A stretch of 64,000 bases of DNA from a virus (lineage: Duplodnaviria; Heunggongvirae; Uroviricota; Caudoviricetes): IMG/VR virus record IMGVR_UViG_3300035680_000003; one strand, written 5' to 3'. The translations under genes were made by a program, and so were the position numbers. The number at the start of each line of letters is the position of its first letter. Position 1 is the stretch's first letter. This document shows, one piece after another, positions 6,425 through 58,498 of this stretch. A model generated the notes under the pieces. That model had not been told where the DNA came from. It worked only from the letters and a program-made list of their open reading frames with translations, and did no database searches.

Positions 6425-6507
6425 GTGTAGTATCAGTACCCGATTTAATATGTTATTTATTATCTTTCAATAACAATAACATTGCGGTTGTTTGCTATTA
6501 AATCCTC

Positions 6508-10081: not shown

Positions 10082-11095
10082 TTTTTTAGCTCGGTCGGCA
10101 AGGGCAACGCTCGCAAGGTTTTTGCCCTTTGCTTCTACCATAATATCATGGGTATCGAGGAAACTTAATGCCCATTCATTTACTGCGGTGTTCCACATAA
10201 AATTACTGTGGGCTCGCAGTTTCTGCTTTTTGTGTCCGGCTTCTAATAGCTGTGCATAATCGGGCAGTGTTTTCTCACAATGTCCAGGTAGCCATTCTTC
10301 ACGGCTAACAGAATAGTGCATAACGGGTCGAACACCCCGCCAGCTGTCAATCACACGTAGAACTCTATCGTCGGTGGGTTGAATGTAGTCTCCTGTACGG
10401 ACCCAGTGATGGTGTACGTCAAGCACGAGGGCGCAATGTTTTTGCAGCTCAAGGCTGCTTTCGATTCCCCAGGCGTTCTCGTCGTTTTCAATTGTGATGC
10501 AGTTTCTTGCTTCGGGGGTAAGTCTTCCGAGTACATCCTTAATGCCTTGTGGACCTCTTCGACCCGAGATGTGGACGTTGATTTTAAAGTCTTGAAACGA
10601 TTTACCATATCCCATCCAGCGGGCCATATCCACATGATATTCAAACTCCTCTATCGACCTATTTACAATATCATCCGACTCACTTGCCAAGACAGTAAAC
10701 TGACCAGGATGAAAGCTGAGCCTAACGCCGCCCTTGCGAGCCAGATCTCCCACGGCTCGAAATGCTCTTTCGCAATAGGCTCTAACATCGGATAGCCTGT
10801 AAAAGAACTGCCAATCGCGCTGAGTATACACAGGTAGTATATCGCTGCCGAGTCGTACCATTCTAAGATTTTCATCAAGTGCTCCTACACGTTCTACCAG
10901 TTTGCGAACAGCTTCAATGTTACCTTTAGTAAGGTCCCAAAGTTTTTCTTCTGCTACATTCTGGCTCTGTCTATTTAACCACGCAACGGTGGTAGAGCCA
11001 GTATTGTACTTTTTAGCATCGTCATTGGGCTTGATGCCATTAACTTGTGCAGGAGTGTCGATCCATTTGCAGGCAAATCCAATTTGTTTTTTCAT
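10067..11095 (-). CDS. uvdE: UV DNA damage endonuclease UvdE/Uve1 family
   Basis: SFHPGQFTVLAS..INVHISG..ITIENDE..LVLDVHHHW..IMVEAKGK aligns with Bacillus UvdE motifs (SFHPNQFT, INIHIGG, LENDD, FDFHH, IEAKQKD). Confidence 0.75.
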   Translation of the reverse strand: MKKQIGFACKWIDTPAQVNGIKPNDDAKKYNTGSTTVAWLNRQSQNVAEEKLWDLTKGNIEAVRKLVERVGALDENLRMVRLGSDILPVYTQRDWQFFYRLSDVRAYCERAFRAVGDLARKGGVRLSFHPGQFTVLASESDDIVNRSIEEFEYHVDMARWMGYGKSFQDFKINVHISGRRGPQGIKDVLGRLTPEARNCITIENDENAWGIESSLELQKHCALVLDVHHHWVRTGDYIQPTDDRVLRVIDSWRGVRPVMHYSVSREEWLPGHCEKTLPDYAQLLEAGHKKQKLRAHSNFMWNTAVNEWALSFLDTHDIMVEAKGKNLASVALADRAKKLSLL

Positions 11096-11742
11096 GATAT
11101 CAATCTTAAATGAGAGGGCGTTGTTATCCCAATTTCTGGAAAAAAGTTTTTTGTGTAAATGTCAAATGCAATTCCAACCCTTAAATTTCCCTGATAGGGC
11201 AATGTTTCGTGTGGCATAATGCAAGAAAAGAAATGTATGTCTCCTGTTTTATTTGGAATTTTTAAAATGTCTTTACCGTAATACACAGTATCACTAGGTG
11301 CATCACCTTGTAAGAATAAGTTTCCACAGATTGTTTTAAACACATTCTTTTTAAACATGTCATTCTCAATAATCGGAGATGCATGGTGCATGTGTTTTTC
11401 TATTCTTTCTCCTTTTCGGAAAATATTAGCCCACATTTTAACATAGAATTCCTCCCCACCAATGATCTGTTTTGCAGATTCTAAAATCTTTTTAAGCAAC
11501 GGATTTATTTGATTAGGAAGAAAATCAATTAAATTGTAATATTCGTGTCTAGTGGTAATAGAATTAACGGGTGCTTCTTTGTAATGTGACGGACCTAATC
11601 CAATAATTTTACTTTCTAGTTTAACAATACTATCAGTAAGTGCATTACAATAAGTTTGATCTAGTACATTGACCCCGAGGATATTGTTTTTGAAATTCTC
11701 AATGCGGTCTTCGTAGACTATTTGGGTTTGTGCAACGACCAT
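11092..11742 (-). CDS. putative cupin / 2OG-Fe(II) oxygenase-like protein
   Basis: His-rich patch KHMHHAS and a later HxxL...R patch; weak. Confidence 0.3.
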   Translation of the reverse strand: MVVAQTQIVYEDRIENFKNNILGVNVLDQTYCNALTDSIVKLESKIIGLGPSHYKEAPVNSITTRHEYYNLIDFLPNQINPLLKKILESAKQIIGGEEFYVKMWANIFRKGERIEKHMHHASPIIENDMFKKNVFKTICGNLFLQGDAPSDTVYYGKDILKIPNKTGDIHFFSCIMPHETLPYQGNLRVGIAFDIYTKNFFPEIGITTPSHLRLIS

Positions 11743-26885: not shown

Positions 26886-26914
26886 AGTATAGCAGTATTA
26901 ACATTGCATGTCAA
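26886..26914 (-). promoter_or_regulatory. sigma70-like promoter (TTGACA-17-TATACT)
   Basis: minus strand TTGACAtgcaatgttaatactgcTATACT, upstream of the 26652..26879 start. Confidence 0.5.
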
Positions 26915-28199: not shown

Positions 28200-28951
28200 T
28201 GATAATCTCTGCCGTCTCTAGAGTGGTACTTTTTATCGGGATCATAGTGGGCAAATTGATCATAATTTGGTTCGTTTGGTAACACTCTTTTACCTACGAA
28301 CCACTCGCCTATGTGATTAATTAGTTTTCTTCCATAATAATTTCTAATATTCGCAGACACCATGCCGTACTGTTCGTGTAGTACTTTACCTACAAGCCCT
28401 TCATTTAAATTAAAATCGTAGAATTTTCTATAGTCCACCTTAACCCTATCTAATGAATATAAACTTGCCATGGGACTAAAAATCAAGCTATTTTTTGTAT
28501 AACGAAAATTCTTATAGATATGATCTGATCTGTCAGCAATCGGATCCGTTTCGTGACCGTACCATGCTTGTCTTGCTAACTGAACCTGTCCCAATTCTTG
28601 ATCTTTTTGCAATAGCTCTATAAGGTCGGTGACTAGTACAGGTTCTAGTATTTCTACGTCATCTTCTTGGTGCCATATGTAGTCATAATCTCTTTCTTTC
28701 ATTAGGTCCCAGAATTGACTCCATGTTACACTCAACCCTAGATTTTCTGGATGCAAAATAATTTCATTATAGCCGTACAACTTAACCAGCTCTGTGATCA
28801 TCAAATCGTTTCGAGTTTTAGGATAATCATCGATGAAAATTTTATGTACTTCGCATCCGTAATAATTTATATTACGCTGTGCTCTTAGTGTACGAGTCAA
28901 GTACTCTAGTCTGTTAGTTGAAAATATTACCTGACAAATTTTATAGGTCAT
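28196..28951 (-). CDS. putative glycosyltransferase-like protein
   Basis: VIFSTNR...KIFIDDYP GT-A-like N-terminal pattern; weak. Confidence 0.3.
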   Translation of the reverse strand: MTYKICQVIFSTNRLEYLTRTLRAQRNINYYGCEVHKIFIDDYPKTRNDLMITELVKLYGYNEIILHPENLGLSVTWSQFWDLMKERDYDYIWHQEDDVEILEPVLVTDLIELLQKDQELGQVQLARQAWYGHETDPIADRSDHIYKNFRYTKNSLIFSPMASLYSLDRVKVDYRKFYDFNLNEGLVGKVLHEQYGMVSANIRNYYGRKLINHIGEWFVGKRVLPNEPNYDQFAHYDPDKKYHSRDGRDYQ

Positions 28952-29499
28952 TAGATTCTCTCAGTATTAAAGAAGAAAGTTTGGAAAAGTCTGCCAGTTT
29001 CGTTGCTGTTACCAAAATAATCTAAACTTGCGTGATATAGATCACCTCGATAAATTATTAGCCTGTTGTATTTGTTTCCTACTCTATCAAATTGATCCCA
29101 TTTAGTATAATCATAACCTTCGTGGTCTTTGTTAGATCTTCTAAATTCTCCAGTTTCTTTGTGACGATAAAATGCAGTTCCACCTGTATGTGGAGCATCT
29201 GGAGTTAGGTAACAAACACCTGCCCACATATTATGATGGTCGGCATGTATCCATGTTCTGTCTTGAGCTGTGGCTAATTGAAAGGCTCCGGTGTAACCTT
29301 GATCTTCAAACCAGTGAGTAACCGGCCCTGCAAATGCCATCCAGTATTCGATACAGGATTTAACATCGTCCGGTAGATAAGGTTTAGTTCTTGATCCGGG
29401 ATAATTTCCTTTTACCGAGAAGTCTTGAGACAATGCATAATTTCTAACAATGTCTGGGTTCTCATAAAAGTTATCGATAACTAATAATTCTAAATTCAT
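28951..29499 (-). CDS. putative 2OG-Fe(II) oxygenase superfamily protein
   Basis: IHADHH (HxD) ... LYHAS ... GRLF, consistent with an HxD...H...R facial triad. Confidence 0.4.
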   Translation of the reverse strand: MNLELLVIDNFYENPDIVRNYALSQDFSVKGNYPGSRTKPYLPDDVKSCIEYWMAFAGPVTHWFEDQGYTGAFQLATAQDRTWIHADHHNMWAGVCYLTPDAPHTGGTAFYRHKETGEFRRSNKDHEGYDYTKWDQFDRVGNKYNRLIIYRGDLYHASLDYFGNSNETGRLFQTFFFNTERI

Positions 29500-36823: not shown

Positions 36824-37117
36824 TCATCCCCACTTTAAAATAAAGAACACAGCGTCCTTTTCGTTTTTAAATCTATACTCAAAGGGTCCAGTACTCCAGC
36901 GAGGATTATTATATCCTTCGTTTCTGTGTCCGAAATACTTTGAGCACCATGCCATCATCTCATCCTTTTCTTCCCACCAATCACCGCCTGAATAATACAC
37001 AGTGTATTTCTGGGGAGCAAGTTCTTCTCGAACCCGCAGTTCTAAACTACGGGGCCGTTTAGTAAACCAGTTCATAGGAGTATGCGGATAAAAACTATTA
37101 ACGTCTAAATCAATCAT
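36824..37117 (-). CDS. hypothetical protein
   Basis: 97-aa ORF. Confidence 0.3.
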   Translation of the reverse strand: MIDLDVNSFYPHTPMNWFTKRPRSLELRVREELAPQKYTVYYSGGDWWEEKDEMMAWCSKYFGHRNEGYNNPRWSTGPFEYRFKNEKDAVFFILKWG

Positions 37118-37650
37118 ACACCTACGAACCGGCTGGCTTCGGCGTGCAACCCTGCGTCACCCTTGGTCATCACAGCCAACAACAATCTCTTTTCCTCCAA
37201 GTAGGTCTTGGCGAAAGCAGGATCGTGAGCCATGATGCTACGGCTGTTGCTGATCAAATCTGCCAACTTGATGGTCTGTGCTTCGGCGGGCGCTCTTGCA
37301 GTATGCTCACGGTCTATTGCCTTGCGGTGGGCACGATTGCCATCATGCGGTTGGCTAACATCAGTCAACCATCCAACCAAGGTAGCAACATCGATACCAA
37401 AGGCCATGTGGATGTCAGTGTATGTGCAACCAGTGTCTTCCACAACATCATGCAACCAAGCAGCCGCAACCATATCAGGAGTGCTACCCGGAACGCCTGC
37501 TACGATCTTGGCAACTTCAGCCGGGTGGACAATGTAGGGTTCGTTAGTGTACTTACGCCTCTGTCCAACTGCGGCGTGAGCAGCCATGGCATAGACTTGC
37601 GCCTTACGGACTACATCAAATCCGCTGAGATCCATTGTAAAATCTTCCAT
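37114..37650 (-). CDS. HD-domain phosphohydrolase, RelA/SpoT-hydrolase (Mesh1 / small alarmone hydrolase)-like
   Basis: YIVHPAEVA...AAWLHDVVEDT...TIKLADLISN parallels the SpoT HD domain (YITHPLEVA, LLHDVIEDT, KLADRLHN); the gene looks GC-richer than its neighbours. Confidence 0.6.
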   Translation of the reverse strand: MEDFTMDLSGFDVVRKAQVYAMAAHAAVGQRRKYTNEPYIVHPAEVAKIVAGVPGSTPDMVAAAWLHDVVEDTGCTYTDIHMAFGIDVATLVGWLTDVSQPHDGNRAHRKAIDREHTARAPAEAQTIKLADLISNSRSIMAHDPAFAKTYLEEKRLLLAVMTKGDAGLHAEASRFVGV

Positions 37651-37676
37651 GCTGCTCTCCTTGTTAATAAGTATAT

Positions 37677-37705
37677 ATTATAGCATGGATTTACCATGCT
37701 GTCAA
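37677..37705 (-). promoter_or_regulatory. perfect sigma70 consensus promoter (TTGACA-17-TATAAT) upstream of the HD hydrolase gene
   Basis: minus strand TTGACAgcatggtaaatccatgcTATAAT; the spacer is an inverted repeat GCATGG..CCATGC. Confidence 0.65.
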
Positions 37706-37932
37706 CCGGAAGTTTTAACCACTTCCAGGATGGTAATTTCTACTACTAAATGCTTACGCAGTAGCATGAACTTTTTGAACTTGGCTTCTATGTCCGCCTG
37801 AATGTACTCGTCATGGTAAGGCATAGTAGCAACGTCCTCATAGGGTTCATCGTTTTCGTTTAACGCTATGAAACTGAGCTTCACTGTGCCCTGTTCGGGC
37901 TCTTTGAACATTTTAACAAATTTGTTGAACAT
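37702..37932 (-). CDS. hypothetical protein
   Basis: 76-aa ORF. Confidence 0.3.
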   Translation of the reverse strand: MFNKFVKMFKEPEQGTVKLSFIALNENDEPYEDVATMPYHDEYIQADIEAKFKKFMLLRKHLVVEITILEVVKTSG

Positions 37933-37940
37933 GCAAATAT

Positions 37941-38486
37941 TTAGTGATGCCCTTTAATTTCGTTATCTTTAATCATACGAACTGCCCGATCCATGGAGAT
38001 TACAATTTCCCCAGTTGAGTCCATACCCACATCCATGCAACGATATTTTTCCATGCCTGTAGTGCCACCGTGCAAGTGACCGTGAAAGTGCAGAGAACCA
38101 CGATGCATCTGATCCCATTCATAGATAGGATAGTGAAACATCACGCACTTGTGGCCATCATAGGTGATATCCAAATACTTATGTACTTCAACAAATGCAT
38201 CGCGGAATGTTACATCCATTAGGGTCTTGCGGTCATGGTTGCCTTCTACAAGGATCTTATCTCCGTTCAACCGATTCATCATTCGTCCAGCATCACTTCC
38301 TGACATAAACGCTACATCGCCTAAGATGTAGACTAAATCACCCGGCTCTACTTTGTCGTTCCATTCTTCCGCCATTGCGTTATTCATATAAGCAACATCG
38401 TCACGAAATCGTGCCCGTGTTTGCGGACAGAACTTCATAATGTTCTTGTGCCCGAAATGGAGATCCGAAGTAATCCAAGTTTTCAT
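37941..38486 (-). CDS. calcineurin-like metallophosphoesterase
   Basis: SDLHFGH, ILGDVAF, GNHD and HFHGHLH motifs. Confidence 0.8.
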   Translation of the reverse strand: MKTWITSDLHFGHKNIMKFCPQTRARFRDDVAYMNNAMAEEWNDKVEPGDLVYILGDVAFMSGSDAGRMMNRLNGDKILVEGNHDRKTLMDVTFRDAFVEVHKYLDITYDGHKCVMFHYPIYEWDQMHRGSLHFHGHLHGGTTGMEKYRCMDVGMDSTGEIVISMDRAVRMIKDNEIKGHH

Positions 38487-38496
38487 ATTATTTCCT

Positions 38497-38525
38497 ATTA
38501 TACAGCCAGTGACCTATACCGTCAA
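38497..38525 (-). promoter_or_regulatory. sigma70-like promoter (TTGACG-17-TATAAT) upstream of the metallophosphoesterase gene
   Basis: minus strand TTGACGgtataggtcactggctgTATAAT. Confidence 0.55.
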
Positions 38526-38986
38526 CTGGCATACCAAATTTCTTTAAACCCTTCTTCCTCAGTGGGCTCTTCCCAACTGGCAATCATGCTGGCAATAACA
38601 TGATCCGGAATCTCTTTGCCAGGGCGGCTCATCAATCGGCGCATAAGTTCTTTGTGTTCAGGTGTCTTAAACACTATTGCAATATGCTCATAGTCAGGTA
38701 ACATGTTAAACTTGCGAGTACGACTTGCAAGAGTAGTACTAGTTTGATCCCAGATAATATCTCGATTCATTTCACGAGCCGCAACAACTTCCTTGGCCAT
38801 AAGGTCTACAGCAGTGGGCATAAAGTCTACAAACACTTCGCTGTAGGTGCGTCCTACTTCCTTTGCGTAGATTTCAACCCACTTGTCTGTGCTAATACAA
38901 GAGCAGGTCAACGCCCAGTCTTGTTCAGCCACCCAAGTACTTTTACCTGAACCAGGCACTCCAATCAATTGATAACATTTTGCCAT
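38522..38986 (-). CDS. polynucleotide kinase-like P-loop kinase (kinase domain only)
   Basis: LIGVPGSGKSTWVAEQ closely matches the T4 Pnk N-terminus (TIGCPGSGKSTWAREF); IIWDQTSTT matches the DxT region. Confidence 0.6.
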   Translation of the reverse strand: MAKCYQLIGVPGSGKSTWVAEQDWALTCSCISTDKWVEIYAKEVGRTYSEVFVDFMPTAVDLMAKEVVAAREMNRDIIWDQTSTTLASRTRKFNMLPDYEHIAIVFKTPEHKELMRRLMSRPGKEIPDHVIASMIASWEEPTEEEGFKEIWYAS

Positions 38987-39454
38987 TTAATCTACACTCC
39001 TAAAAGTTCGCCAATCGTCTATGTTTGGCTTTTCATCTTCATCATATGTCCAACCCAAAGCCTTCATCATGCGATGCTTGACCAATAGGTTGGGGCTACG
39101 GAATCTACCTGTGTCTTCAAAGCCCATCATAACACCAACTTCGCAAACTGCACCACTGCGGCAAATACCCGCATAGCAGTGAACAACTACATTCATACGG
39201 TTGTCCTTTGCGTGTTGCAACAGTCGAACAAGCTCGTTAGCCTGCTCTTGACTACATTTCATTGCTTCTTCCAACACTTCGTCCTTGGCCTCTACGTCCA
39301 AAAACTCAAAGTTGTGTTGCTCTTTAAACTTGTGAGCAGGCACAGGGCGCCAGCTGGCCGGATCAACAATGCTGATCAGCATACTGTTCTCACCTGCCTC
39401 ATGATGAAACCTTGTGGGTATATCAGCGGCCGCTACGTTTTCAATCCATGGCAT
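38987..39454 (-). CDS. Cys-based protein/RNA phosphatase (dual-specificity PTP fold)
   Basis: VVHCYAGICRSGAV carries the HCx5R(S/T) P-loop. Confidence 0.7.
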   Translation of the reverse strand: MPWIENVAAADIPTRFHHEAGENSMLISIVDPASWRPVPAHKFKEQHNFEFLDVEAKDEVLEEAMKCSQEQANELVRLLQHAKDNRMNVVVHCYAGICRSGAVCEVGVMMGFEDTGRFRSPNLLVKHRMMKALGWTYDEDEKPNIDDWRTFRSVD

Positions 39455-39477
39455 TTTATTCTCCTGCGCATTATATA

Positions 39478-39506
39478 ATTATAGCATCACTTTACCATTT
39501 TGTCAA
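39478..39506 (-). promoter_or_regulatory. perfect sigma70 consensus promoter (TTGACA-17-TATAAT) upstream of the Cys-phosphatase / kinase array
   Basis: minus strand TTGACAaaatggtaaagtgatgcTATAAT; shares the ggtaaa..gc spacer core with the promoter at 37677. Confidence 0.65.
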
Positions 39507-39518
39507 GCCAGTAAATAA

Positions 39519-39735
39519 TGTTATGTCCACCCAAAAAACTCGCCTAGAAAAAAAAGCTGACGATATATTTGAGTTGCTGGATCATTATGTTTATCCCACA
39601 ACGGGCGAAACACTGGCAGCTCAAAAGGGTTTGATGGTAGGCTGGTTAGCTAGACTGGCAACTACTGACTGGACAGTTGCAGAAGAATTAGAAAGACGAT
39701 TACATCTTGCTCGGAAACAAAAAGGTAAAATTTGA
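39519..39735 (+). CDS. hypothetical protein (short form of track ORF 39412..39735)
   Basis: the internal Met avoids overlap with the phosphatase gene and its promoter. Confidence 0.25.
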
Positions 39736-39771
39736 ATTTTATACCCTCTAATTTTAGAAATAAATATAATT

Positions 39772-40323
39772 ATGAGATGTTTCTATAAATTAAAAATTAA
39801 TAATCTAGAATCTATACAGGCACACGCATTATCTAAAATATCTGAAGAAGATCTTAATTTGATGCCAACTAGATTATTTTATCCAGAATATAATTTTTTA
39901 GATGATCAAGATCTCTTATGTGCGTTAAATCAATACGGGTTGACAAATTATATACATAATGTTGCTCTTTTTGTTCTCAATTCAGGAGGCATAAGCCCTA
40001 TTCATGTCGACGGGGATAATGACTATAATTGGAGTTTAAATATACCTTTAAAAAATTGCAGATATACTCGAACTAATTTTTATCAATCTAATGAGGTTCC
40101 TGTTAAGAAAAAAAGTCCAAACAGTGATATAGAATACAGTATCTTTGATCCAAACTCTTGCACACTACTAGATTCTCTTCGATTATCTGATCCATTTTTA
40201 ATGAATGTGTCAGTTCCTCACAGCATATCTAATCTTACTTTTACAACAAGAGTTTCTATATGTATAAGAATAAAATCTACATTTGACATAGAAGCCGCTC
40301 TGTCAGAATGGGATTTAAAATAA
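39772..40323 (+). CDS. 2OG-Fe(II) oxygenase-fold protein, paralog family member 1
   Basis: PIHVDGDND (HxD) ... VPHSISNLTFTTRVS (H-x10-RxS). Confidence 0.5.
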   Translation: MRCFYKLKINNLESIQAHALSKISEEDLNLMPTRLFYPEYNFLDDQDLLCALNQYGLTNYIHNVALFVLNSGGISPIHVDGDNDYNWSLNIPLKNCRYTRTNFYQSNEVPVKKKSPNSDIEYSIFDPNSCTLLDSLRLSDPFLMNVSVPHSISNLTFTTRVSICIRIKSTFDIEAALSEWDLK

Positions 40324-40330
40324 CGAATTT

Positions 40331-40870
40331 CTACATAATAAATTTTTCAAATCTACTTAATGCATCCTGCCATTTGAAATATTTCGAATTGTGTAATGAT
40401 ACTTTTATACTAACACACCATCGAGGTGACGTTATATTTGATACGTTATGAGGAACACCGCTTTGAAATAAACACGCCCCTTGTAAGTTTACGGATTCGA
40501 TTAACTGCATTTTATCAATTTCGTAGTCTCTTTTCCAAGCTACACCATTGTGTTTCGGTAGTCCTGGATACTTATTAATTGATCTGTACCAGTTAACTAG
40601 ACTATCATTTGCATTTATATAAAAATTTAAATTTGTTTGATCGTAAACGTTATAGTTGTCTATATGAATCGGGGAAGACGTGCTTTCCCCACTATAATAA
40701 ATTATTAGGCCGTTTAGTCGAAAATCATCAATTTTCTTTAACAGTTCTAGCATATCTGGACTTAATATTTCTGTTATATGAGCAGTACCTAATTTCCATT
40801 GTTTTTCGCATACAAAAGATTCGCTAAGAAACGGTACAGGAAATGACAGTTTTTTAAAATAATCGCTCAT
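40331..40870 (-). CDS. 2OG-Fe(II) oxygenase-fold protein, paralog 2
   Basis: SPIHIDNYN ... GVPHNVSNITSPRW. Confidence 0.5.
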   Translation of the reverse strand: MSDYFKKLSFPVPFLSESFVCEKQWKLGTAHITEILSPDMLELLKKIDDFRLNGLIIYYSGESTSSPIHIDNYNVYDQTNLNFYINANDSLVNWYRSINKYPGLPKHNGVAWKRDYEIDKMQLIESVNLQGACLFQSGVPHNVSNITSPRWCVSIKVSLHNSKYFKWQDALSRFEKFIM

Positions 40871-40933
40871 TCAAATATTTACCACCTAATTATTAATCGA
40901 GCTTTCTAGGAGTAATAAGAGCAGATAAATATT

Positions 40934-41500
40934 TTGATGAAATATTATAAAAAAATAGAAATTGAAAACTTAGAGGTAATACAGAAAAAAGTTTTACAAT
41001 TTATTAAATTTAAACACCCCACTATATATTTTAGAAAAGTTGAGTCATCTTGGAACCATCTCGATGTTCCGAGTTTGTTGGCGGCATGCCCAGAACTTTC
41101 TGAGTCTTTCGGCAAATTGAATTTATCCTGCATTTTTGCGTCAATTCATATAATGTATGATAATACACATTCTGCTATACATACTGATATTACGCCCTGG
41201 AAAGCTAGAATTAACATTCCTATTTTAAATTGCAACGGAACATTTACTAAATTTTATACAGGTGAAAAGGTAGTAGAAGAAATTAGGACCATGGCAAATA
41301 ATAAAACGTTTAAGGTAGATGCAATTATAAATCCACTTGAATGTATTGAAGTAGACGCATACGAATTAACACAGCCGTTAATTCTTAAAACTTATATACC
41401 ACATAGGGTTTTTATGAATGAAACTTCGAGACCTAGAATAGCATTGTCAATTGGCTGCGATCCTGATCCATTCTATCAATATTTTTCGTCAGACGAATAA
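40934..41500 (+). CDS. 2OG-Fe(II) oxygenase-fold protein, paralog 3
   Basis: SAIHTDITP ... IPHRVFMNETSRPR. Confidence 0.5.
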   Translation: MMKYYKKIEIENLEVIQKKVLQFIKFKHPTIYFRKVESSWNHLDVPSLLAACPELSESFGKLNLSCIFASIHIMYDNTHSAIHTDITPWKARINIPILNCNGTFTKFYTGEKVVEEIRTMANNKTFKVDAIINPLECIEVDAYELTQPLILKTYIPHRVFMNETSRPRIALSIGCDPDPFYQYFSSDE

Positions 41501-42067
41501 ATCTGTAGTATCCACTACATCTTCAATATTTCTAAATTTAATAGGATGTAGTCCCCATCGCACGGTAAACATTATCCTTATATCATCATTAAAATTTTTA
41601 ACACCATGCATGACATCACCTTTAACAAAACAAGGCTTTGTTATCTCAAGGTCTTCGATAATTTCTAATTTAGAATTGTCTATAGGAGTTAGACCATGCA
41701 GGTAACTGCTTTGTACGGCACCCATGACTAGATTTTCTTTTGGACAATGATACCATAACATTTTTGTATTATGACAATTTAATACAGGAATATTTAATCC
41801 AAACGGTACTGTAATGAATGAACTATCAACATGAGGAGCTAGCTCAGCATGCCCCGGTGTAAAATAAAACCTAAGTAATCGAATTTGACTTTTACTCCTC
41901 GACTTTAGCCACCTCATTAATTTTGGACAATGTTCAGTCATATGCTCTTCACTGAACGTACATGCATGTAGGCCTTTAGATGCATAATCATAATTAATAG
42001 ATTTAATTAATTCGTGTTGAATCTCTTCAAAGTTGGGGATATGGATGTATCTATAAAGTTCTTGCAT
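41489..42067 (-). CDS. 2OG-Fe(II) oxygenase-fold protein, paralog 4
   Basis: APHVDSS ... VMHGVKNFNDDIR. Confidence 0.45.
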   Translation of the reverse strand: MQELYRYIHIPNFEEIQHELIKSINYDYASKGLHACTFSEEHMTEHCPKLMRWLKSRSKSQIRLLRFYFTPGHAELAPHVDSSFITVPFGLNIPVLNCHNTKMLWYHCPKENLVMGAVQSSYLHGLTPIDNSKLEIIEDLEITKPCFVKGDVMHGVKNFNDDIRIMFTVRWGLHPIKFRNIEDVVDTTDLFV

Positions 42068-42733
42068 ACTTCCAAATATTTAGTAATAAATACTTTACAA
42101 ACTTTAAAAATTATGCTACCTTCTATAACATTAAACCCTGATGATTATTATTATGCACTTAATCAGCCCTGTACAATCTTACCTCAACTATTAGAATATG
42201 TTCAAAGTGTAGAAGACTGGGAGGGATTAGATTGGCATACATTTTATTTAGATGTACCAAATAGGACTGCTTGTAATTTCGAATCAGATCCTGTAATTAA
42301 ATTTTTTCTAGATCAGGGATGGAGGTTAAACTTCACATGTATGCCCCCTAAGGGGCATTATCGATGGCATATCGATAATCAAGGAAATAGACAAACCGCA
42401 ATAAATTTAGCACTAAATGGTTTTGAAACAACTAAAGTTATGTGGCGACCAAATAGACCGTACGTGCGAAAAATGAATACAGAAATTATGGATATTCCCT
42501 ACACACCTGGTACGTATTTTGTATTTAATACACAAGAGGAACATTGTGTAACTAATTTCAGTAATGAAAATAGATATCTATTAAGCATTACACCAGATAA
42601 AAGATTTGCTGTTCCTGAGTATTTTGACGGAATTTATAAAAATGTAAGTCCTAGTCGATACGCTGAAATTCTAAAAGGTTACAAGCTAGCATTTAAAGAG
42701 GTCGTTAGCGAAGTTAAAGCACAAGGTTGGTAG
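42014..42733 (+). CDS. 2OG-Fe(II) oxygenase-fold protein, paralog 5
   Basis: WHIDNQGN ... EEHCVTNFSNENRY. Confidence 0.45.
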   Translation: MLNLFKVGDMDVSIKFLHTSKYLVINTLQTLKIMLPSITLNPDDYYYALNQPCTILPQLLEYVQSVEDWEGLDWHTFYLDVPNRTACNFESDPVIKFFLDQGWRLNFTCMPPKGHYRWHIDNQGNRQTAINLALNGFETTKVMWRPNRPYVRKMNTEIMDIPYTPGTYFVFNTQEEHCVTNFSNENRYLLSITPDKRFAVPEYFDGIYKNVSPSRYAEILKGYKLAFKEVVSEVKAQGW

Positions 42734-42745
42734 TAGATTTTAAAT

Positions 42746-43354
42746 TCAGTCTTTCCATCTAATAGTATTCCAATCAAACATAAAATTTAAGTTAAGTTGT
42801 TCGTACGCTATCCATTGTTTAGTGTACTGAATATTAAGAGGAAAATCAATTACATTAAAATTATTATAAAATAGATGATGTAATTGTCTAGGTGATCGAG
42901 TTTCACCTAATCTTTTTCTTTTAAATGTTTCTATCAAATTTTTATTATAGTCATTAAATGTGATAGCAATAGCTTTACAATTATTGTCTATTGCCCATTG
43001 TTTGTGCATTGGTAAAAAAAGTTCTCTAGGTAATCCTAAATGTCGGTAATCTTTTGTAACCCATGTTCTACATCCGCCTATGGCAACTTCATTGGAGAAT
43101 TCACTTCTATAAACTCCCGAACAGGCTACAATAGTTTCATTTTTTATCGCTAAGTGAAACGCTCCACTGGTTTCAAAATATCGATGCCTGTTGTATATTT
43201 GATGTATTAGTGTGTTAGATTTAGTATGCCAATCTTCTACCCACATATTGCTGTGTGCTAGCTGAGTAATTTCTTCTGATGCCTCTTGACAAAATTTAAA
43301 AAATAAACTTTTATCCTCTAACTCGTCATACCGAATAAGTGTTAGATCAGACAT
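42746..43354 (-). CDS. putative GNAT-fold acyltransferase
   Basis: IVACSGV...AIGGCRTWVTKDYRHLGLPRELF looks like GNAT motif A and CoA-binding core; weak. Confidence 0.3.
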   Translation of the reverse strand: MSDLTLIRYDELEDKSLFFKFCQEASEEITQLAHSNMWVEDWHTKSNTLIHQIYNRHRYFETSGAFHLAIKNETIVACSGVYRSEFSNEVAIGGCRTWVTKDYRHLGLPRELFLPMHKQWAIDNNCKAIAITFNDYNKNLIETFKRKRLGETRSPRQLHHLFYNNFNVIDFPLNIQYTKQWIAYEQLNLNFMFDWNTIRWKD

Positions 43355-43895
43355 TGCTAACTAAATCTTCAAAATTTGGATTACCGTGAAATCTCATAGT
43401 AAATACCCACCGATCTTCGAGTTGATTTGATTGTGCTGAATGCGGACAATCTACTCTTAATAGATGAGGGCTGTCAATTTCTAATTTAAAATCTTCTGTA
43501 TATGGTTCTTGCCACATAATTTCATGATAAACGTTGTTGGATAACATTACAAGAGATGTGCTGTATTTTCCTTTATACCAAATTTGGTAACTGTTTTTAC
43601 AACCTTTCAACGGAATGTTTATTGCAGATTTTATAATACCTTCTTCATTACCGTCTATATGAATACCTTGAAAACTATTCTTTGGTCTAATATAACTTAG
43701 ACAATAGCGAACAGGAGGTATATTATACCTAGCTAGGTCTGCATCAATTATATGCTTTAATTGATTGTTGAGCTCGTGTCTTATTTGTATTTGTCTATCT
43801 ACAGGAATTGAAGTATCTATCTTTTTCTCTATATCTAAAATTGCAAATTCTTTTATAAGATGTTCGCATGTTAAATGAATTTTTTTACAGTACAC
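43347..43895 (-). CDS. 2OG-Fe(II) oxygenase-fold protein, paralog 6
   Basis: GIHIDGNEEG ... CPHSAQSNQLEDRW. Confidence 0.5.
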   Translation of the reverse strand: MYCKKIHLTCEHLIKEFAILDIEKKIDTSIPVDRQIQIRHELNNQLKHIIDADLARYNIPPVRYCLSYIRPKNSFQGIHIDGNEEGIIKSAINIPLKGCKNSYQIWYKGKYSTSLVMLSNNVYHEIMWQEPYTEDFKLEIDSPHLLRVDCPHSAQSNQLEDRWVFTMRFHGNPNFEDLVSNV

Positions 43896-43960
43896 GATGT
43901 TTATCGTAAAATTTTGGAATATCTTTTATTTAACTCTCTGCAATTTTGTAATATAAATAT

Positions 43961-44587
43961 ATGAAACATATTATGATAGTAGCCACACCACTTAACCTTC
44001 CTACTGTAGTCCCTGACGATTGGTCTGTATTTTGGAATATTTGGAACAATTATGGAAAACCTATAGTTAAAACGCAACAAAACCATAAGGGATCTTATTC
44101 AAAAATTGGAGATACAGATGTCTGGAAAGGTTTAGATATCTATAAAAATAATTTATTTCGATCTGCATGGACTGCACCTTACTATGATATTCGAGAAGAA
44201 CTTCCCTTAATGTATCAAATGATTACAAAAATTCCTCTATTCTCTCTTGTCACTGGTGTTAGGGTTGTAGAAAGCCTAGGAAATATTCCGCCACACACTG
44301 ATGATAATATAGATCGATGGAACGTTAGAGCAATGTTGCATTATACTGATTCGAACCCTCAATGGTTTTTTACTAAACCGAATGATACAAAAACTGCTGT
44401 GTTGTTAACATTGCCAGAGTCCACTAATTGGTTTGCATATAACGATAAGTACACATGGCATGGGTCGAAGTATAACCCGGATCACCCTAAATTATTAATT
44501 CAAATGTTTGGAGTAGGATTTAAGAACAGTCAGTTCCTACAAAAAAGTGCAGAAATGTACAAAGAATATACAATATCATATGACTAA
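43961..44587 (+). CDS. 2OG-Fe(II) oxygenase-fold protein, paralog 7 (divergent)
   Basis: PPHTDDNID ... TWHGSKYNPDHPK. Confidence 0.4.
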   Translation: MKHIMIVATPLNLPTVVPDDWSVFWNIWNNYGKPIVKTQQNHKGSYSKIGDTDVWKGLDIYKNNLFRSAWTAPYYDIREELPLMYQMITKIPLFSLVTGVRVVESLGNIPPHTDDNIDRWNVRAMLHYTDSNPQWFFTKPNDTKTAVLLTLPESTNWFAYNDKYTWHGSKYNPDHPKLLIQMFGVGFKNSQFLQKSAEMYKEYTISYD

Positions 44588-45368
44588 TTTATTTCAAGCT
44601 AGTTCAACTACTGTTAGGTATTCTCATATTGTAGCAAGGTTAGCAATTATTATAGGTGCATTCTTTGTAACATTTAATTTACCCTTATTACTTGTGTCTG
44701 CTATTGCATATCATGTTTTACTATCTATCGGTATAAGCATAATGATGCATAGATACTTCAGCCATAAAAGTTTTGAATTTAAAAATAATATTGTCAGAAA
44801 AGTTTTTATTATAATTTCATTGCTTTCGTTGCGAGGAAGTCCAATAGCTTGGGCATACATCCATCGAGCACATCACGAACACGTAGATACCGAAGATGAT
44901 CCGCATACTCCTGTTGGTAGAAAATTTAACTTTTTTGGATTACTTGACAACAAAAATAAAGCTGATGATATTCAGATATTTAAAATTAGATCTATGATGA
45001 CCAAGGAGCACCTATTTATTAATCAATACTATTGGTTGATCTTAGCATGTTTGTTAGTACCTTTTGCATTTATTAATTTTACATTATTTTATTATACATG
45101 GCTAGTTCCTGTAGTTCTTGTACAATTTTCTATTAATTTACAAAACTATTTAGGACATATGTCAGGTATAGGTGCGTATAGGACTTACACTAATCCATCT
45201 AGCGGCAATAGTCAAAATAGTTTGTTATTGTGGCCTTTATATTTAGGTGAAGCGTGGCATAACAACCACCATGCACATGCTCGACATTATCACTACGGAA
45301 CTGAAATAAGTGGAAAGTGGTGGGAGATCGATCCCGGTGCAATGCTCATTAAGTTACTGAAAAAATGA
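44547..45368 (+). CDS. membrane acyl-lipid/acyl-CoA delta9-desaturase-like di-iron enzyme (DesC/SCD family)
   Basis: three His boxes HRYFSH, HRAHHEH and GEAWHNNHHAHARHY (compare HRLWSH, HRxHH and HNNHH); four hydrophobic segments. Confidence 0.75.
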   Translation: MQKCTKNIQYHMTNLFQASSTTVRYSHIVARLAIIIGAFFVTFNLPLLLVSAIAYHVLLSIGISIMMHRYFSHKSFEFKNNIVRKVFIIISLLSLRGSPIAWAYIHRAHHEHVDTEDDPHTPVGRKFNFFGLLDNKNKADDIQIFKIRSMMTKEHLFINQYYWLILACLLVPFAFINFTLFYYTWLVPVVLVQFSINLQNYLGHMSGIGAYRTYTNPSSGNSQNSLLLWPLYLGEAWHNNHHAHARHYHYGTEISGKWWEIDPGAMLIKLLKK

Positions 45369-45925
45369 TACGATTTTTAACAATGGATGACTTGCCGGAT
45401 TGCATGAAAATTGCACCATTAAAAAATAGAACCGGTGGCACTGTTCCATTAACACTCGAAGGATTTTTAGGTGCCTTTGAAAAATATTTCCAGGATGATG
45501 AATTTTGCCGTGTGATTGGATACTTTGAAAATAATGAACTTGTTAGTTTTGTATGTATCAGAATGTTCGAAACTACGATGAGAGGAAAATTTTGGGTTAT
45601 TTCGGGATTATATACTAAGAATTTTAAAAGTTATTTTAGCTTTAACCATTCAGGAATAGGCGAATTAATTAAATTTGCATTCGATTATGCTGAATCACGA
45701 GGTTGGTATGAATATTATTATTGCACTGCCGAACGTGTAATAAATGTATATGAAAGACAATGGAAACGATCACACTCTCATAGATACGAACATATATTGT
45801 TAGACGTTGTTCCACCTAATACAAAACCATTTTATGAATTGCACTGGAGACTAATGGGGCAAGAAGTTAAACCTGTCCCAATGATTGTTAAAAAGCGAGC
45901 GTTAAAACAAGAATTTAGAAAATAA
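45365..45925 (+). CDS. putative GNAT-fold acyltransferase (second)
   Basis: VSFVCIR...GIGELIKFAFDYAESRGWYEYY resembles the GNAT core; weak. Confidence 0.3.
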   Translation: MIRFLTMDDLPDCMKIAPLKNRTGGTVPLTLEGFLGAFEKYFQDDEFCRVIGYFENNELVSFVCIRMFETTMRGKFWVISGLYTKNFKSYFSFNHSGIGELIKFAFDYAESRGWYEYYYCTAERVINVYERQWKRSHSHRYEHILLDVVPPNTKPFYELHWRLMGQEVKPVPMIVKKRALKQEFRK

Positions 45926-45971
45926 AAATCAGTTATTTTATCCTATAAATATAATGCTCATAGGAAACTAA

Positions 45972-46748
45972 ATGAACACAGCATTTTTATCTAGCAGCAC
46001 TAGGGGTGCTCAACTATTCTTGATATTAAATTTAATAGGTACTTTCGGTGCTGTCTGGTTGTACGGATTAAATTTTAATTCTTTTATGATGGTACTAGTG
46101 GGATACTTTTTATATGGTTGTTTAGGTATCGTCGTAACTTATCACAGAAATCTTTCTCACAATAGTTATAGAACACATCCGATCATTGTAAAGATATTTT
46201 CATTATTAGGATGCTTTGCAGGGACCGGCAGTCCACTTGCATGGGTGGCCATTCATATCAATCATCACTTAAAGAGTGACAAGCCTACTGATCCGCATAG
46301 TCCGTTATACAAAGGGGTAAAGATCTTTATGATGGATTATATAAATGAAGTTGATAAAGATACAAAATGGAGAATGAGGGCATTAGTCACTGACAGATTC
46401 CAGCAATTCCTACATAGATATTATTTTGCAATCATTGCAACCTATAGCCTTGTACTATTTTTAATAGGAGGATTTTGGTTGATGGTATTTTTTCATTGGG
46501 CGCCTGCTGCAATGACCGCCCTTATGAGTAATGTTGTTAATTATGTGGGACACAAACCAAGTTGGTGGGGTGGATATAGAACACACAATCTAAATGATCA
46601 AAGTACAAATAATTGGCTATGGGCTATTCCTAGTTGGGGGGAAGCGTGGCACAACAATCATCATAGATATCCTAGGAATTTTAGTTTTGGAAACAAGTGG
46701 TGGGAGATTGATATTTCGGCACTTGTAATTAGATTGATTAAAATTTAA
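45972..46748 (+). CDS. membrane delta9-desaturase-like di-iron enzyme (second copy)
   Basis: HRNLSH, HINHHLKSD and GEAWHNNHHRYPRNF His boxes; paralog of 44547..45368. Confidence 0.75.
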   Translation: MNTAFLSSSTRGAQLFLILNLIGTFGAVWLYGLNFNSFMMVLVGYFLYGCLGIVVTYHRNLSHNSYRTHPIIVKIFSLLGCFAGTGSPLAWVAIHINHHLKSDKPTDPHSPLYKGVKIFMMDYINEVDKDTKWRMRALVTDRFQQFLHRYYFAIIATYSLVLFLIGGFWLMVFFHWAPAAMTALMSNVVNYVGHKPSWWGGYRTHNLNDQSTNNWLWAIPSWGEAWHNNHHRYPRNFSFGNKWWEIDISALVIRLIKI

Positions 46749-47620
46749 TGAAATTTAATAGCAAACATCCAATTGTGGCTATGCCCATGAATGGAGTATC
46801 CAATGTTGACTTAGCTATTGCTGTAACTCAAGCGGGTGCTGTACCTAGTTTGTCAATCTTTAATTATTATGAAGGTGGAAAAGTAAATCTAAAGCATGTA
46901 GATGCCAGTTTAAAAAGGTTTACAGATGCAACCAGTTCTACAGAAATAATTTTAAGTATGCACTGGGAACATTTTATATGGACTCCTGTTATAGATGTTC
47001 TATTAGAAAATAATATAAAATTAGTTGAACTTTTTATTAGACCATCAGATCATCATTTGTGGCCTGAATTATCTAAACAGATCGACAATATGAAGGTACA
47101 CGGTATAGCTGTAATGTTTAAAACTTCTAATCGGCTACCTATGTCCTATTTTGATTCGATAGTATTGAAAGGTCCTCAGGCTGCTGGGAGATCATTCGGT
47201 AGTCTAGTATCATTAGAAGATCGATATGATGCTATGAAAGAACAAGTAGGATCAAGAATCATTCCAAGCGGTGGTATTGGCAGTCCTGAACAGGTAAAAT
47301 ATTTTATGGACAGAGAAGCATTAGCTGTGGGTATTGGCACACTACTTGCAGCATCTGAAGAAAGTTGTGTGTCAAGCGATACTAAACAAAAAATTATAGA
47401 GTCCACATCAAAAGATATCAAATTAATAGGTCCGTTAAATTGCAGAGGGCTGTTATTTTCTAGACTAGAAAATGACGACGATAACAATTCCAAATCTCTA
47501 TATGAGGGTATCAAGGGAACTAATTCCGGATGCATCTATGTAGGCAACGGAATAGACTATATAAACAAAATAATGCCAGTAAAAGATATAATAGAGTGGT
47601 TAGTTAAAGATGTTAATTAA
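46748..47620 (+). CDS. nitronate monooxygenase / FabK-like FMN TIM-barrel oxidoreductase
   Basis: PIVAMPMNGVSNVDLAIAVTQAGAV resembles the NMO/FabK N-terminus (PIIQAPMAGVS..LAAAVSNAGGLG); Gly-rich IPSGGIGSPEQV later. Confidence 0.5.
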   Translation: MKFNSKHPIVAMPMNGVSNVDLAIAVTQAGAVPSLSIFNYYEGGKVNLKHVDASLKRFTDATSSTEIILSMHWEHFIWTPVIDVLLENNIKLVELFIRPSDHHLWPELSKQIDNMKVHGIAVMFKTSNRLPMSYFDSIVLKGPQAAGRSFGSLVSLEDRYDAMKEQVGSRIIPSGGIGSPEQVKYFMDREALAVGIGTLLAASEESCVSSDTKQKIIESTSKDIKLIGPLNCRGLLFSRLENDDDNNSKSLYEGIKGTNSGCIYVGNGIDYINKIMPVKDIIEWLVKDVN

Positions 47621-49681: not shown

Positions 49682-49699
49682 GATATATAAATATTCTTT

Positions 49700-50266
49700 A
49701 TGTACTTCTCATACTTATCTCTTCCAAGATTACCTAAAGAATTTTTTGCTCAATGTTTGGAAAATGTAAAATACATTGGTGTAGATCCTAGACTAGAAAA
49801 TGTTAATAGTTATCGAGGGCCAATGAATCGAGCTACGTATCTGCCCGAAGAATGTAATACATGGATTATTAGAAATATTGTATTTCCGTTATATGGAAGT
49901 ATTCCTTCAACTCTAAAATTAAATTTATTAAATGTAACTACATACCAAAAGTTAAAACCTCAAGAAGAGACATGGGGTACACACCCTAAACATATCGACA
50001 AAGGCAGAAACTGGGCATTAAATTATTATTTTACCACTGGTGGAAGTAATACTACCGTTAGGTGGTACGAAGATAATGTTGTGGCAGCAGAAACACCACC
50101 TATAGAAATTAATAGATGGTGTTTATTAAAAGTTAATCAACTACACGATGTTAGAGGAATTGAAGAAGGTCAAATTCGATATTTTTTAACATTGAATATT
50201 TCTTCTGAAAATATAGATAATTTTAAATCAGTAATTGATCAAAATACAGTGATTGAAAAAAAATGA
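49700..50266 (+). CDS. 2OG-Fe(II) oxygenase-fold protein, paralog 8
   Basis: HPKHIDKGRN ... NQLHDVRGIEEGQIRY. Confidence 0.4.
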   Translation: MYFSYLSLPRLPKEFFAQCLENVKYIGVDPRLENVNSYRGPMNRATYLPEECNTWIIRNIVFPLYGSIPSTLKLNLLNVTTYQKLKPQEETWGTHPKHIDKGRNWALNYYFTTGGSNTTVRWYEDNVVAAETPPIEINRWCLLKVNQLHDVRGIEEGQIRYFLTLNISSENIDNFKSVIDQNTVIEKK

Positions 50267-51795: not shown

Positions 51796-51844
51796 TTATC
51801 TAGGTAGAGTTAAATTAACATTTTTACAAAATTAGAACTAACAA

Positions 51845-53590: not shown

Positions 53591-53622
53591 TGTAAGAGTA
53601 ATGTGCGTATATAAATAGTTGT

Positions 53623-57314: not shown

Positions 57315-57320
57315 AGAAAA

Positions 57321-57715: not shown

Positions 57716-58498
57716 TTACCATATTATAGCATAGTCTTTAAATTTGGTAGCCGACATAACTATCATATCTCTAGTTCTCTGTCGAACTATAGTTTGATAA
57801 TTTTTTTTAACTGTTATAAATGCTGCAATTCTAATACCTGAAACATTTATTGATGGTGCATGTACTGCTCTAAAATTGTTTAGATAATATGCCATGTGCG
57901 GATCGGTCATCTTACAATTAAAAATTTCTTCTTGCAATCTTCTATCCCCGCCGGTTAACGGTACAGTAATACCTTCCTGTCTGTAGTAGGGCAGTTTTGT
58001 TTTTCGTAATAATAATGGATTATCATTGTAGTGTTCACACTCGAGGTAGAATCTAAAACCGGTTGGATCAACATCATTGTGCCAAAATGAAACACCTTTG
58101 ACGGATTTTCTTACTGGCAAGAATATTGCACCACTAAGTTCATGTCGGCGTATTTTAAAAGCTTCATAGCAATATACTGCTAGTTCGGGAAATTCTTTAT
58201 CAAAATTATTTTGCCAGACGCCGTCCCAAGCACCCCAAACTAAATCCCAAGGGTATTCTTCTCCAATAATATCTTCAGCATTATCTGATTTAGACTTACA
58301 GGATTGCGGGTAGGCACTTTGCGCCCAAGATAAAAATTTTGTAATGTCTACATCCGGTCTCTTTGGGATGTCTAAGGGAGTATAACAAATATCAATAGGT
58401 TCCATACTTATTTTTTTTAATCTTGTTTGCTTATAACGGATATGCACAATATTTAAAAGAGCATTCATTGCTAAGTTATTTATTTTTAAAAATAACAA
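57716..58498 (-). CDS. 2OG-Fe(II) oxygenase-fold protein, paralog 9
   Basis: SFWHNDVD (HxD) ... RAVHAPSINVSGIR (H-x10-R). Confidence 0.4.
   Translation of the reverse strand: MLFLKINNLAMNALLNIVHIRYKQTRLKKISMEPIDICYTPLDIPKRPDVDITKFLSWAQSAYPQSCKSKSDNAEDIIGEEYPWDLVWGAWDGVWQNNFDKEFPELAVYCYEAFKIRRHELSGAIFLPVRKSVKGVSFWHNDVDPTGFRFYLECEHYNDNPLLLRKTKLPYYRQEGITVPLTGGDRRLQEEIFNCKMTDPHMAYYLNNFRAVHAPSINVSGIRIAAFITVKKNYQTIVRQRTRDMIVMSATKFKDYAIIW

Follow-up and report, generated by a model that had tools for sequence, protein, structure and literature searches.

A variable array of genes for predicted minimal Fe(II)/2-oxoglutarate dioxygenases at the edge of a low-GC island in an uncultivated phage

Small genes coding for 2-oxoglutarate (2OG)-Fe(II) oxygenases are known to occur in several copies in aquatic phages. 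Marine T4-like cyanophages carry one to five of them per genome, 537-768 nucleotides (nt) long, in 14 of 16 genomes (PMC3037559, Sullivan et al. 2010), and HTVC023P-type pelagiphages contain eight non-orthologous 2OG oxygenase types that are often co-located (PMC9599517). Here we analyse a dense group of such genes in a 64,000-nt stretch of Caudoviricetes DNA (IMG/VR record IMGVR_UViG_3300035680_000003), the whole of which is called the window below. Multi-copy small 2OG oxygenases being already known in cyanophages and pelagiphages, this locus extends a known pattern and is no new kind of system. As in these phages, the genes are small accessory genes (there termed auxiliary metabolic genes, AMGs). 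In contrast to both described sets, core proteins of the window match no PHROG or Pfam model, the genes lie at higher density, and they are linked to an island of desaturase-like and radical-SAM genes in a phage of ~375 kb. The cyanophage members resemble them in structure only to a template modelling score (TM) of ~0.5.

In our view the locus is likely to be a hypervariable array, on the margin of an accessory island of low GC content, in which genes for minimal (~180-230 amino acids, aa) Fe(II)/2OG dioxygenases each have their own promoter. The nine open reading frames (ORFs) named in a preliminary description of this DNA are all present, and all of them are conserved genes. Seven lie within 4.8 kb, and 11 genes of double-stranded beta-helix (DSBH) type are found within 64 kb. 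They are named here by the first coordinate of their ORF and assigned to two sequence families, A and B, or listed as separate genes (HMM, hidden Markov model).

39772..40323, plus strand: predicted family A oxygenase, 183 aa; HVD 78-80, H150, R160; phmmer matches to sister paralogs at E 9e-13 to 9e-5
40331..40870, minus strand: predicted family A oxygenase, 179 aa; HID, H-x8-R; paralog E 8e-8, 4e-6
40937..41500, plus strand: predicted family A oxygenase (ORF 40934), 187 aa; E 1e-12 against 39772
41489..42067, minus strand: predicted family A oxygenase, 192 aa, modelled; H79, D81, H154, R164
42014..42733, plus strand: predicted distant family A member, ORF from GTG 42014; HID, H-x9-R; broad family-A HMM E 1.1e-8
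42746..43354, minus strand: GNAT acetyltransferase, not an oxygenase; Pfam Acetyltransf_1 22.2 bits against a cut-off of 20.7, E 1.8e-4
43347..43895, minus strand: predicted family A oxygenase, 182 aa, GTG start; paralog E ~6e-6; ortholog in contig L005 68% identical
43961..44587, plus strand: predicted family B oxygenase, 208 aa; H112, D114, H167, K177
49700..50266, plus strand: predicted distant family A member, 188 aa; family-A HMM E 1.5e-6
57716..58405, minus strand: predicted family B oxygenase, 229 aa; H109, D111, H182, R192; family-B HMM E 3e-76
11092..11742, minus strand: separate 2OG-Fe(II) oxygenase-type gene outside the island; phrog_81 E 6e-9; PF13759 26.4 bits against a cut-off of 27
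28951..29499, minus strand: DUF6445 gene, possible further DSBH protein; PF20043 E 1.9e-17; HAD...H...R pattern by eye

The last two had been proposed as more distant relatives, which is backed at family level by phrog_81 and PF13759 for the former and by DUF6445 together with the HAD...H...R pattern seen by eye for the latter. Strict alternation of strands, also proposed, holds for the seven clustered oxygenase genes (+ - + - + - +) but not gene by gene (+ - + - + - - +), as the GNAT gene intervenes between the fifth and sixth of them. Several starts differ from the ORF limits. The true start of the 40934 ORF is ATG 40937, not TTG 40934, and an equivalent start is called in contig L001. Gene 42014 probably begins at ATG 42041 (gene call) or 42113 (inferred from an upstream motif). 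In the 57716-58498 ORF the start is ATG 58405; 32 of 46 homologs are exactly 229 aa long and nearly all align to the same 88% of the ORF.

The DSBH Fe(II)/2OG-oxygenase fold suggested earlier is borne out by two AlphaFold models, by their Foldseek matches in the PDB and by invariant or nearly invariant residues. The AlphaFold2 model of the 41489 ORF (57 sequences; predicted local distance difference test, pLDDT, 93.7) has eight strands within residues 62-171, with H79 and D81 in the second (75-82), H154 in the seventh (154-158) and R164 in the eighth. The model of the 43961 ORF (60 family-B sequences; pLDDT 94.5) displays the same layout with H112, D114, H167 and K177, where H112 closes strand 109-112 and H167 falls within strand 166-169. 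In both models HxD is found at or just past the second core strand, the distal His in the seventh and the Arg or Lys at the start of the eighth. The modelled proteins are thus predicted to possess a DSBH core with an HxD...H facial triad, the placement of which is read from predicted strand positions. They are likewise predicted to carry, about ten positions after the distal His and at the start of strand VIII, a basic residue that would bind the C5 carboxylate of 2OG. Genes 42014 and 49700 were assigned to the superfamily by HMM alone.

Among the 50 best PDB matches of the 41489 model, all are Fe/2OG dioxygenases save a few other cupin-fold proteins (CucA 2xl7, YubC 3eqe). Proline 3-hydroxylase 1e5r leads (E 7e-6), and AndA, AviO1, proline cis-4-hydroxylase, GriE, PiuC, TYW5 and JMJD5 are also matched, with TM <=0.57 and 10-17% identity. 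The free-proline hydroxylases 1e5r and 4p7w, along with AndA, AviO1 and GriE, are the solved structures that family A matches best (E 7e-6 to 2e-4). With the proline hydroxylases, the model of family A shares the DSBH core, HxD, the distal H and an R ten residues later. Unlike them, the window proteins are ~80-100 residues shorter; identity is 10-13% with no sequence-level relationship, and shared substrate-binding elements are not demonstrable. Leading PDB matches of the 43961 model are ALKBH2, OkaE, AspH, AlkB, P3H and PHD2. The closest BFVD structures belong to uncharacterised proteins of uncultured Caudovirales phage (TM 0.71-0.82), followed by cyanophage proteins named "2OG-Fe(II) oxygenase", "PhyH" and "Asp/Asn/Pro hydroxylase" (TM ~0.5).

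Comparison with the prolyl 4-hydroxylase and PhyH families, which the preliminary description had recommended, yielded no assignment. Against PF13640 (2OG-FeII_Oxy_3; threshold 27 bits) 42014 scores 21.5 bits (E 4.8e-4) and the other eight ORFs have no match at E<=1; none of the nine matches the Pfam PhyH model at E<=1. Cyanophage "PhyH" proteins are weak structural matches (TM 0.33-0.49). Against PF05118 (Asp_Arg_Hydrox; threshold 22.6 bits) only 42014 matches, at 14.5 bits (E 0.032). PF05118, the Asp/Asn beta-hydroxylase family, is the only Pfam family touched by members of family A at large: 9 of 76 reach E<0.01 (best E 9e-7), and a faint precomputed match is present on P0031. AspH is among the family B matches in the PDB, and family A lacks TPR or membrane domains. 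PF05118 also includes the lipid A hydroxylase LpxO. With PHROG profiles, no oxygenase PHROG was detected among the nine ORFs, nor in any of the 76 family members at E<=1e-3; phrog_81 is matched only by the separate gene 11092-11742. Products of 28951, 11092, 47610 and 54203 gave no useful match in a phmmer search of PDB sequences.

The catalytic motif had been described as HxD followed by H-x9/10-R(x)S. H-x9/10-R is present in seven of the nine ORFs; 40331 has H-x8-R, with the basic Arg at +9 after the distal His, and 43961 has H-x9-K. The R(x)S element fares less well, since literal RxS occurs in 39772 only and the remaining ORFs have R-x3-S/T or nothing comparable. The pattern H.D.{45,95}H.{9,10}R is found in 11 of 150 window ORFs, compared with 2.7 (maximum 7) in shuffles. 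These 11 include four unrelated ORFs (543, 15414, 46748 and 55492), so the motif alone is weak evidence, and homology and structure are needed. A multiple alignment of the nine proteins shows no variation at H, D or the distal H; displacement of these residues, which would have spoken against the proposal, was not seen. Within family A, H79, D81, N92, H154 and R164 are invariant in 57 sequences, and in a 76-sequence alignment the triad is invariant with R164 at least 90% conserved. The 57716 type (29 sequences) has invariant H109, D111, H182 and R192. In the 43961 type (33 sequences) H112 and H167 do not vary; for D114 and K177 conservation is at least 90%.

Each enzyme would bind Fe(II) by its 2-His-1-Asp triad and 2OG by the strand-VIII Arg or Lys. 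Decarboxylation of 2OG would then give an Fe(IV)-oxo species, and this would hydroxylate or otherwise oxidise a C-H bond. One might suppose that no specific prime substrate exists and that the proteins merely consume 2OG to shift the carbon/nitrogen status of the host, as was suggested for multi-copy cyanophage oxygenases (PMC3037559), or that they are non-catalytic cupin-fold proteins. The small and minimal proteins seen here would suit such a role. Bulk drawdown, however, requires neither nine or more divergent, individually conserved ortholog lines nor linkage to tailoring enzymes, and invariance of the triad argues against a non-catalytic function. We therefore give this explanation hardly any credence.

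The nine predicted proteins do not form one family, as had been assumed, but span at least two very divergent families within the DSBH superfamily. This division follows from phmmer, HMM and hhalign comparisons: A comprises five core and two distant members, B comprises 43961 and 57716. All-against-all phmmer within the window recovers five mutually significant paralogs (39772, 40331, 40934, 41489 and 43347; E 1e-12 to 1e-3) with pairwise identities of 12-24%. A profile of these five detects 42014 and 49700 weakly (E ~2e-4). With a profile of 199 family members, 42014 is matched at E 1.1e-8, 49700 at 1.5e-6 and 43961 at 1.3e-4, with HxD, H and R in register; 57716 is undetected by it. Genes 43961 and 57716 have separate homolog sets that align to each other over their full length in hhalign (E 6e-4), and family B has conserved motifs of its own, N-terminal TPLDxP and C-terminal KYKDYxI. 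Neither of these two sets aligns significantly with family A in hhalign (E 0.31 and 0.01); weak reciprocal HMM matches between A and B do exist.

Exhaustive HMM search of metagenomes retrieves 3,399 family A clusters at E<=1e-3 and 1,807 at E<=1e-10, two- and three-domain fusions included. An impression that family A is rare, gained from a word-indexed search (53 clusters), was rejected on these numbers. No cellular genome was found when orthologs were sought by alignment against GTDB representative genomes, a search limited by its seed patterns, and the same alignment gave only three IMG/VR contigs. A single-protein search of viral contigs detected no related locus.

The preliminary description attributed the array to repeated duplication with inversion, one small gene giving rise in place to nine paralogs of diversifying substrate range. 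This is what seven DSBH genes on alternating strands within 4.8 kb, a catalytic motif common to all nine and five detectably paralogous ORFs bring to mind; the ratio of nonsynonymous to synonymous substitution rates (dN/dS) of the three leftmost genes (0.25-0.38) is also above that of their neighbours. Recent duplicates should be each other's closest relatives or be accompanied by DNA repeats, and neither was found. For every window paralog, 26-196 of 198 database sequences, ranked by identity, are closer than any sister paralog. Search of 39400-44700 for inverted or direct repeats gave short AT-rich chance matches only. Sisters share just 12-24% identity, and two of the nine are members of a separate family. 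In no gene is the gene-wide dN/dS above 1, and alternation of seven genes has a random expectation of ~1/64, a weak signal after the fact.

Moreover, each paralog type has its own orthologs in other phages. Three types find theirs among database matches at 45-98% identity; orthologs of 40331 (P0004-P0022) are 81-97% identical. Orthologs of 40934 and 43347 in contig L005 show 74% and 68% identity, and 49700 has orthologs in L005 and L015 (73-76%) that retain H-x-D, H149 and R160. Gene 41489 is missing in L005 and found in L003, L004, L014, L015, L018 and L019. For 42014 no ortholog is present among the loci examined.

Gene set and orientation vary between related phages, while the neighbouring backbone remains constant. 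In the nearest relative (L005-L008, 62-82% amino acid identity) order and strands are kept and the divergent pair 41489/42014 is missing. Contig L015 shares the backbone at 73-85% identity with a different, mostly co-directional oxygenase set, including two family B genes in tandem and an extra family A gene between the NMO and desaturase-like genes. L003, L018 and L019 each display a different arrangement. Protein P0122 (556 aa; L009 484-2154, L010 998-2668) consists of three complete fused family A domains, each with HxD, H and R, and two-domain fusions are represented by P0154 and P0225. Strand alternation is conserved only in L005 and lost in L003, L015, L018, L019 and the fused P0122; it is lineage-specific. 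Given this turnover across L005, L015, L003, L018, L019, L014 and P0122, the array is a hot spot of cassette gain and loss. Single genes or divergent pairs would be gained from a large phage pool of ~3,400 clusters and lost again, and recent in-place duplication with inversion would not be the source. We judge the latter highly unlikely. Very ancient duplication inside the phage lineage may have occurred; recent duplication is contradicted. The fold assignment of the preliminary description is correct and its evolutionary story is wrong.

A lone 41489 ortholog, 78% identical and on the opposite strand, is located at 8001-8615 of L014 in an unrelated neighbourhood. It stands in a long co-oriented run coding for GTP cyclohydrolase I, an epimerase, UDP-glucose dehydrogenase and dCMP deaminase, and behaves like a moron-type insertion.

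Positive selection, another proposed check, is not seen gene-wide. Compared with L005 orthologs, dN/dS is 0.14-0.38 in the oxygenase genes (0.38 in 40331, 0.15 in 43347) and 0.04-0.17 in their neighbours. Selection is purifying and somewhat relaxed in 39772-41500. Synonymous divergence (dS) from L005 is 0.27-0.70 in 39772-41500 and 1.1-1.7 in the rest of the island. Low dS in this segment points to a mosaic and suggests more recent recombinational exchange between lineages. As for diversity of function, variation among the paralogs is greatest in the loop that joins core strands IV and V (residues ~108-133 in 41489, its sole low-confidence, indel-rich segment). Such variation points to differing substrates or positions of attack. 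A diversifying substrate range is plausible.

Individual expression of the genes is suggested by a short motif with core TAAATA, which we take to resemble the T4 late promoter TATAAATA. It is found within 35 nt upstream of the start in 10 of 26 island genes (0.8 expected, P 1.4e-9) and in 7 of 66 other genes (0.7 expected), giving 17 of 92 where ~1.5 would be expected. It precedes 49700 and all but one of the seven clustered oxygenase genes, and in the island it mostly marks first genes of apparent transcription units. The total count of TAAATAT in the window is not enriched (26, 27 expected); only its position upstream of starts is. Putative sites and divergent regions are as follows.

39761-39767: island site of the TATAAATA-like motif; TAAATAT ends 4 nt before the ATG of 39772
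40871..40936: 66-nt divergent intergenic region with one TAAATAT per strand, at 40875-40881 (minus) and 40926-40932 (plus)
42068..42112: divergent region between 41489 and 42113; TAAATAT at 42076-42082 (minus), TAATAAATA on the plus strand
43896..43960: 65-nt divergent region between 43347 and 43961; TATAAATAT abuts ATG 43961, with the site at 43954-43960
45946-45952: island site
49688-49694: island site
53600-53622 region: island site
Elsewhere, upstream of 3458-6424, 6508-8055, 9713, 26911-27645, 37702-37932 and 62481-63983

Distance between motif and ATG is 4-9 nt at most oxygenase genes and 25 nt at the inferred 42113 start. Expression would start from these T4-late-like TATAAATA motifs, 4-25 nt before the start codons. 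Because the motif is so near, leaders would be very short or missing, and the oxygenase transcripts are probably very short-leadered or leaderless. At fibre genes, the motif is followed by a purine-rich (Shine-Dalgarno-like) leader of 20-30 nt. A scan for sigma-70 promoters (37 sites, 31.6 expected) and terminators (1, 2.1 expected) was uninformative.

Convergent gene ends within the array overlap by 12 nt or are separated by 7-12 nt (41489-41500, 40323-40331 and 42733-42746), with no terminator-like structure. Convergent transcription at these ends would read antisense into the adjacent gene.

Between ~40 and 58 kb the GC content is 29-35%, compared with ~37-46% in the flanks. Strand switches are frequent in this island, and large ORFs of 1-39 kb lie nearly all on the minus strand. 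Redox and tailoring genes are abundant, many of them paired (44547-57653 and 62481-63983).

44547 and 45972: two FA_desaturase-like membrane proteins with His boxes
46748: NMO-family protein, presumably FabK-like
48773 (minus) and 55492 (minus): two TctC-like binding proteins
50263-51795 and 62481-63983 (minus): two B12/radical-SAM proteins
51845 and 56385 (minus): two PP-loop QueC-like ATPases
52751 (minus): Rieske protein
Within 44547-57653 and 62481-63983: uncharacterised proteins of 388 aa and 430 aa

A backbone of desaturase-like, NMO, 388-aa, TctC, oxygenase and radical-SAM genes is kept in related phage contigs L005, L015 and L018. Coupling to the oxygenases is direct at several points. 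Gene 43961 overlaps by its 3' end the desaturase-like gene 44547/44580-45368. Gene 49700 directly precedes the B12/radical-SAM gene 50263-51795, and the same order recurs at the P0122 locus, where the fusion gene directly precedes a radical-SAM gene. In L003 and L019 a desaturase-like gene comes immediately after a 41489-type gene, and in L018 the two are separated by a short, weak family A ORF. The GNAT gene adjoins family A genes also in L003, L005, L011, L015 and L018, and in L011 a desaturase-like gene recurs with family A as well.

The phage itself is distant from cultivated ones. Zero matches were obtained with megablast of 39000-46000 against 50,697 phage genomes, and equally with tblastn of the 41489 protein against the same set. 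Database protein P0003, from metagenomic contigs of 240-376 kb, is identical to the 39772-40323 product. As no isolate phage shares DNA in this region, the source of the 64-kb stretch is an uncultivated phage of ~375 kb. It carries rIIA (34151-36328) and rIIB (33094-34173) near the array, plus collagen-repeat fibre genes and numerous small ORFs. The closest isolate match of rIIA, in PA5oct-like Pseudomonas jumbo phages, is only 28% identical.

Upstream, the array is adjoined by small signalling-type genes: HD_4 (37114-37650), an AAA_33 kinase-like gene (38522-38986) and a dual-specificity phosphatase (38987-39454). This run (37114-39454) shows 71-92% identity in relatives and is far better kept than the oxygenases. 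The collagen-triple-helix-repeat fibre genes 3458-6424 and 6508-8055 account for a local GC peak of 51%. A Peptidase_S74 chaperone domain is present in one of them and an Mtd_N (major tropism determinant N-terminal) domain in the second.

As to substrates, we tentatively favour tailoring oxygenases that would act in a pathway of the adjacent desaturase-like, NMO (presumably FabK-like), GNAT and radical-SAM enzymes. The substrate would then be some small molecule of the infected cell, lipid-like or otherwise. This preference, held with low confidence, is based on the redox and tailoring neighbours, on coupling with the desaturase-like gene and on the precedent of phage-encoded lipid desaturases (PMC5776448).

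Hydroxylation of protein side chains (Pro, Lys, Asp, Asn or Arg), either in virion proteins such as the collagen-like tail fibres 3458-8055 or in host proteins, those of the ribosome for example, would agree with the distant link of family A to the Asp/Asn beta-hydroxylases of PF05118. PDB matches also include the ribosomal oxygenases ycfD and MINA53, along with JMJD5, AspH and PHD2. The H-x9-K spacing of 43961 is typical of collagen prolyl 4-hydroxylases, and both collagen-repeat fibre genes share an upstream TAAATA, which fits co-expression. We nevertheless regard this as unlikely. The best structural matches (proline 3-/4-hydroxylases, AndA, AviO1, GriE) act on free amino acids or small molecules, a peptide-binding domain is absent, scores stay below the thresholds of PF13640 and PF05118, and the genes conserved nearby code for desaturase-like, NMO and GNAT proteins and not for structural ones.

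Nucleic acids have to be considered as well, be it in AlkB-like repair or in hypermodification of bases together with PP-loop (QueC-like) and radical-SAM neighbours. ALKBH2 and AlkB are the leading fold matches of family B (E 6e-5, TM 0.47-0.48), QueC-like PP-loop ATPases are encoded in the island at 51845 and 56385, as are two B12/radical-SAM proteins, and L011 has QueC twice and PTPS beside a family A gene. A role in DNA repair was suggested for cyanophage 2OG oxygenases (PMC3037559). On the other side, TM to AlkB-type structures is 0.38-0.48 at 10-12% identity, no AlkB Pfam match was found, the best matches of family A are not nucleic-acid enzymes, and at least nine distinct nucleic-acid oxygenases in one phage would be without precedent. 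Altogether this seems distinctly improbable.

A bolder version of the tailoring reading, which we hold to be quite unlikely, would see in the array a swap-in, swap-out toolkit of self-promoted minimal oxygenases decorating one product of the conserved backbone, its oxidation pattern varied by cassette turnover. The product, lipid-like or peptide-like, would come from a phage-encoded biosynthetic or remodelling pathway of the desaturase-like, NMO, radical-SAM, PP-loop and GNAT backbone, and three-domain P0122 would represent a fixed form of one such combination. Linked to it is the possibility of leaderless late transcripts from TATAAATA-type promoters abutting the start codon.

Several observations count against an array of self-promoted tailoring dioxygenases as preferred here. 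TM to solved enzymes is modest (<=0.57), and subfamily and substrate are therefore not assignable from structure. When compared with Pfam and PHROG, none of the nine ORFs reaches threshold, and the family A profile yields only chance matches to the N-terminal helix among PDB sequences. The case for a lipid-like substrate is circumstantial. The PP-loop (QueC-like) and B12/radical-SAM neighbours would suit the chemistry of nucleosides or peptides just as well. The promoter, finally, is read from a short AT-rich motif within AT-rich DNA.

Genes for Fe/2OG oxygenases rank with the most common accessory genes in aquatic phages, and for almost none of the enzymes is a substrate known. The locus described here is a dense, well-preserved example from sequence families outside current domain libraries. 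It provides a compact test set of nine paralogs in which the catalytic motif is intact; they come from two families without Pfam or PHROG model and are linked to conserved tailoring enzymes and to natural fusion proteins. Their substrate, if found, would annotate thousands of "hypothetical" phage proteins and could reveal a phage-encoded oxidative pathway.

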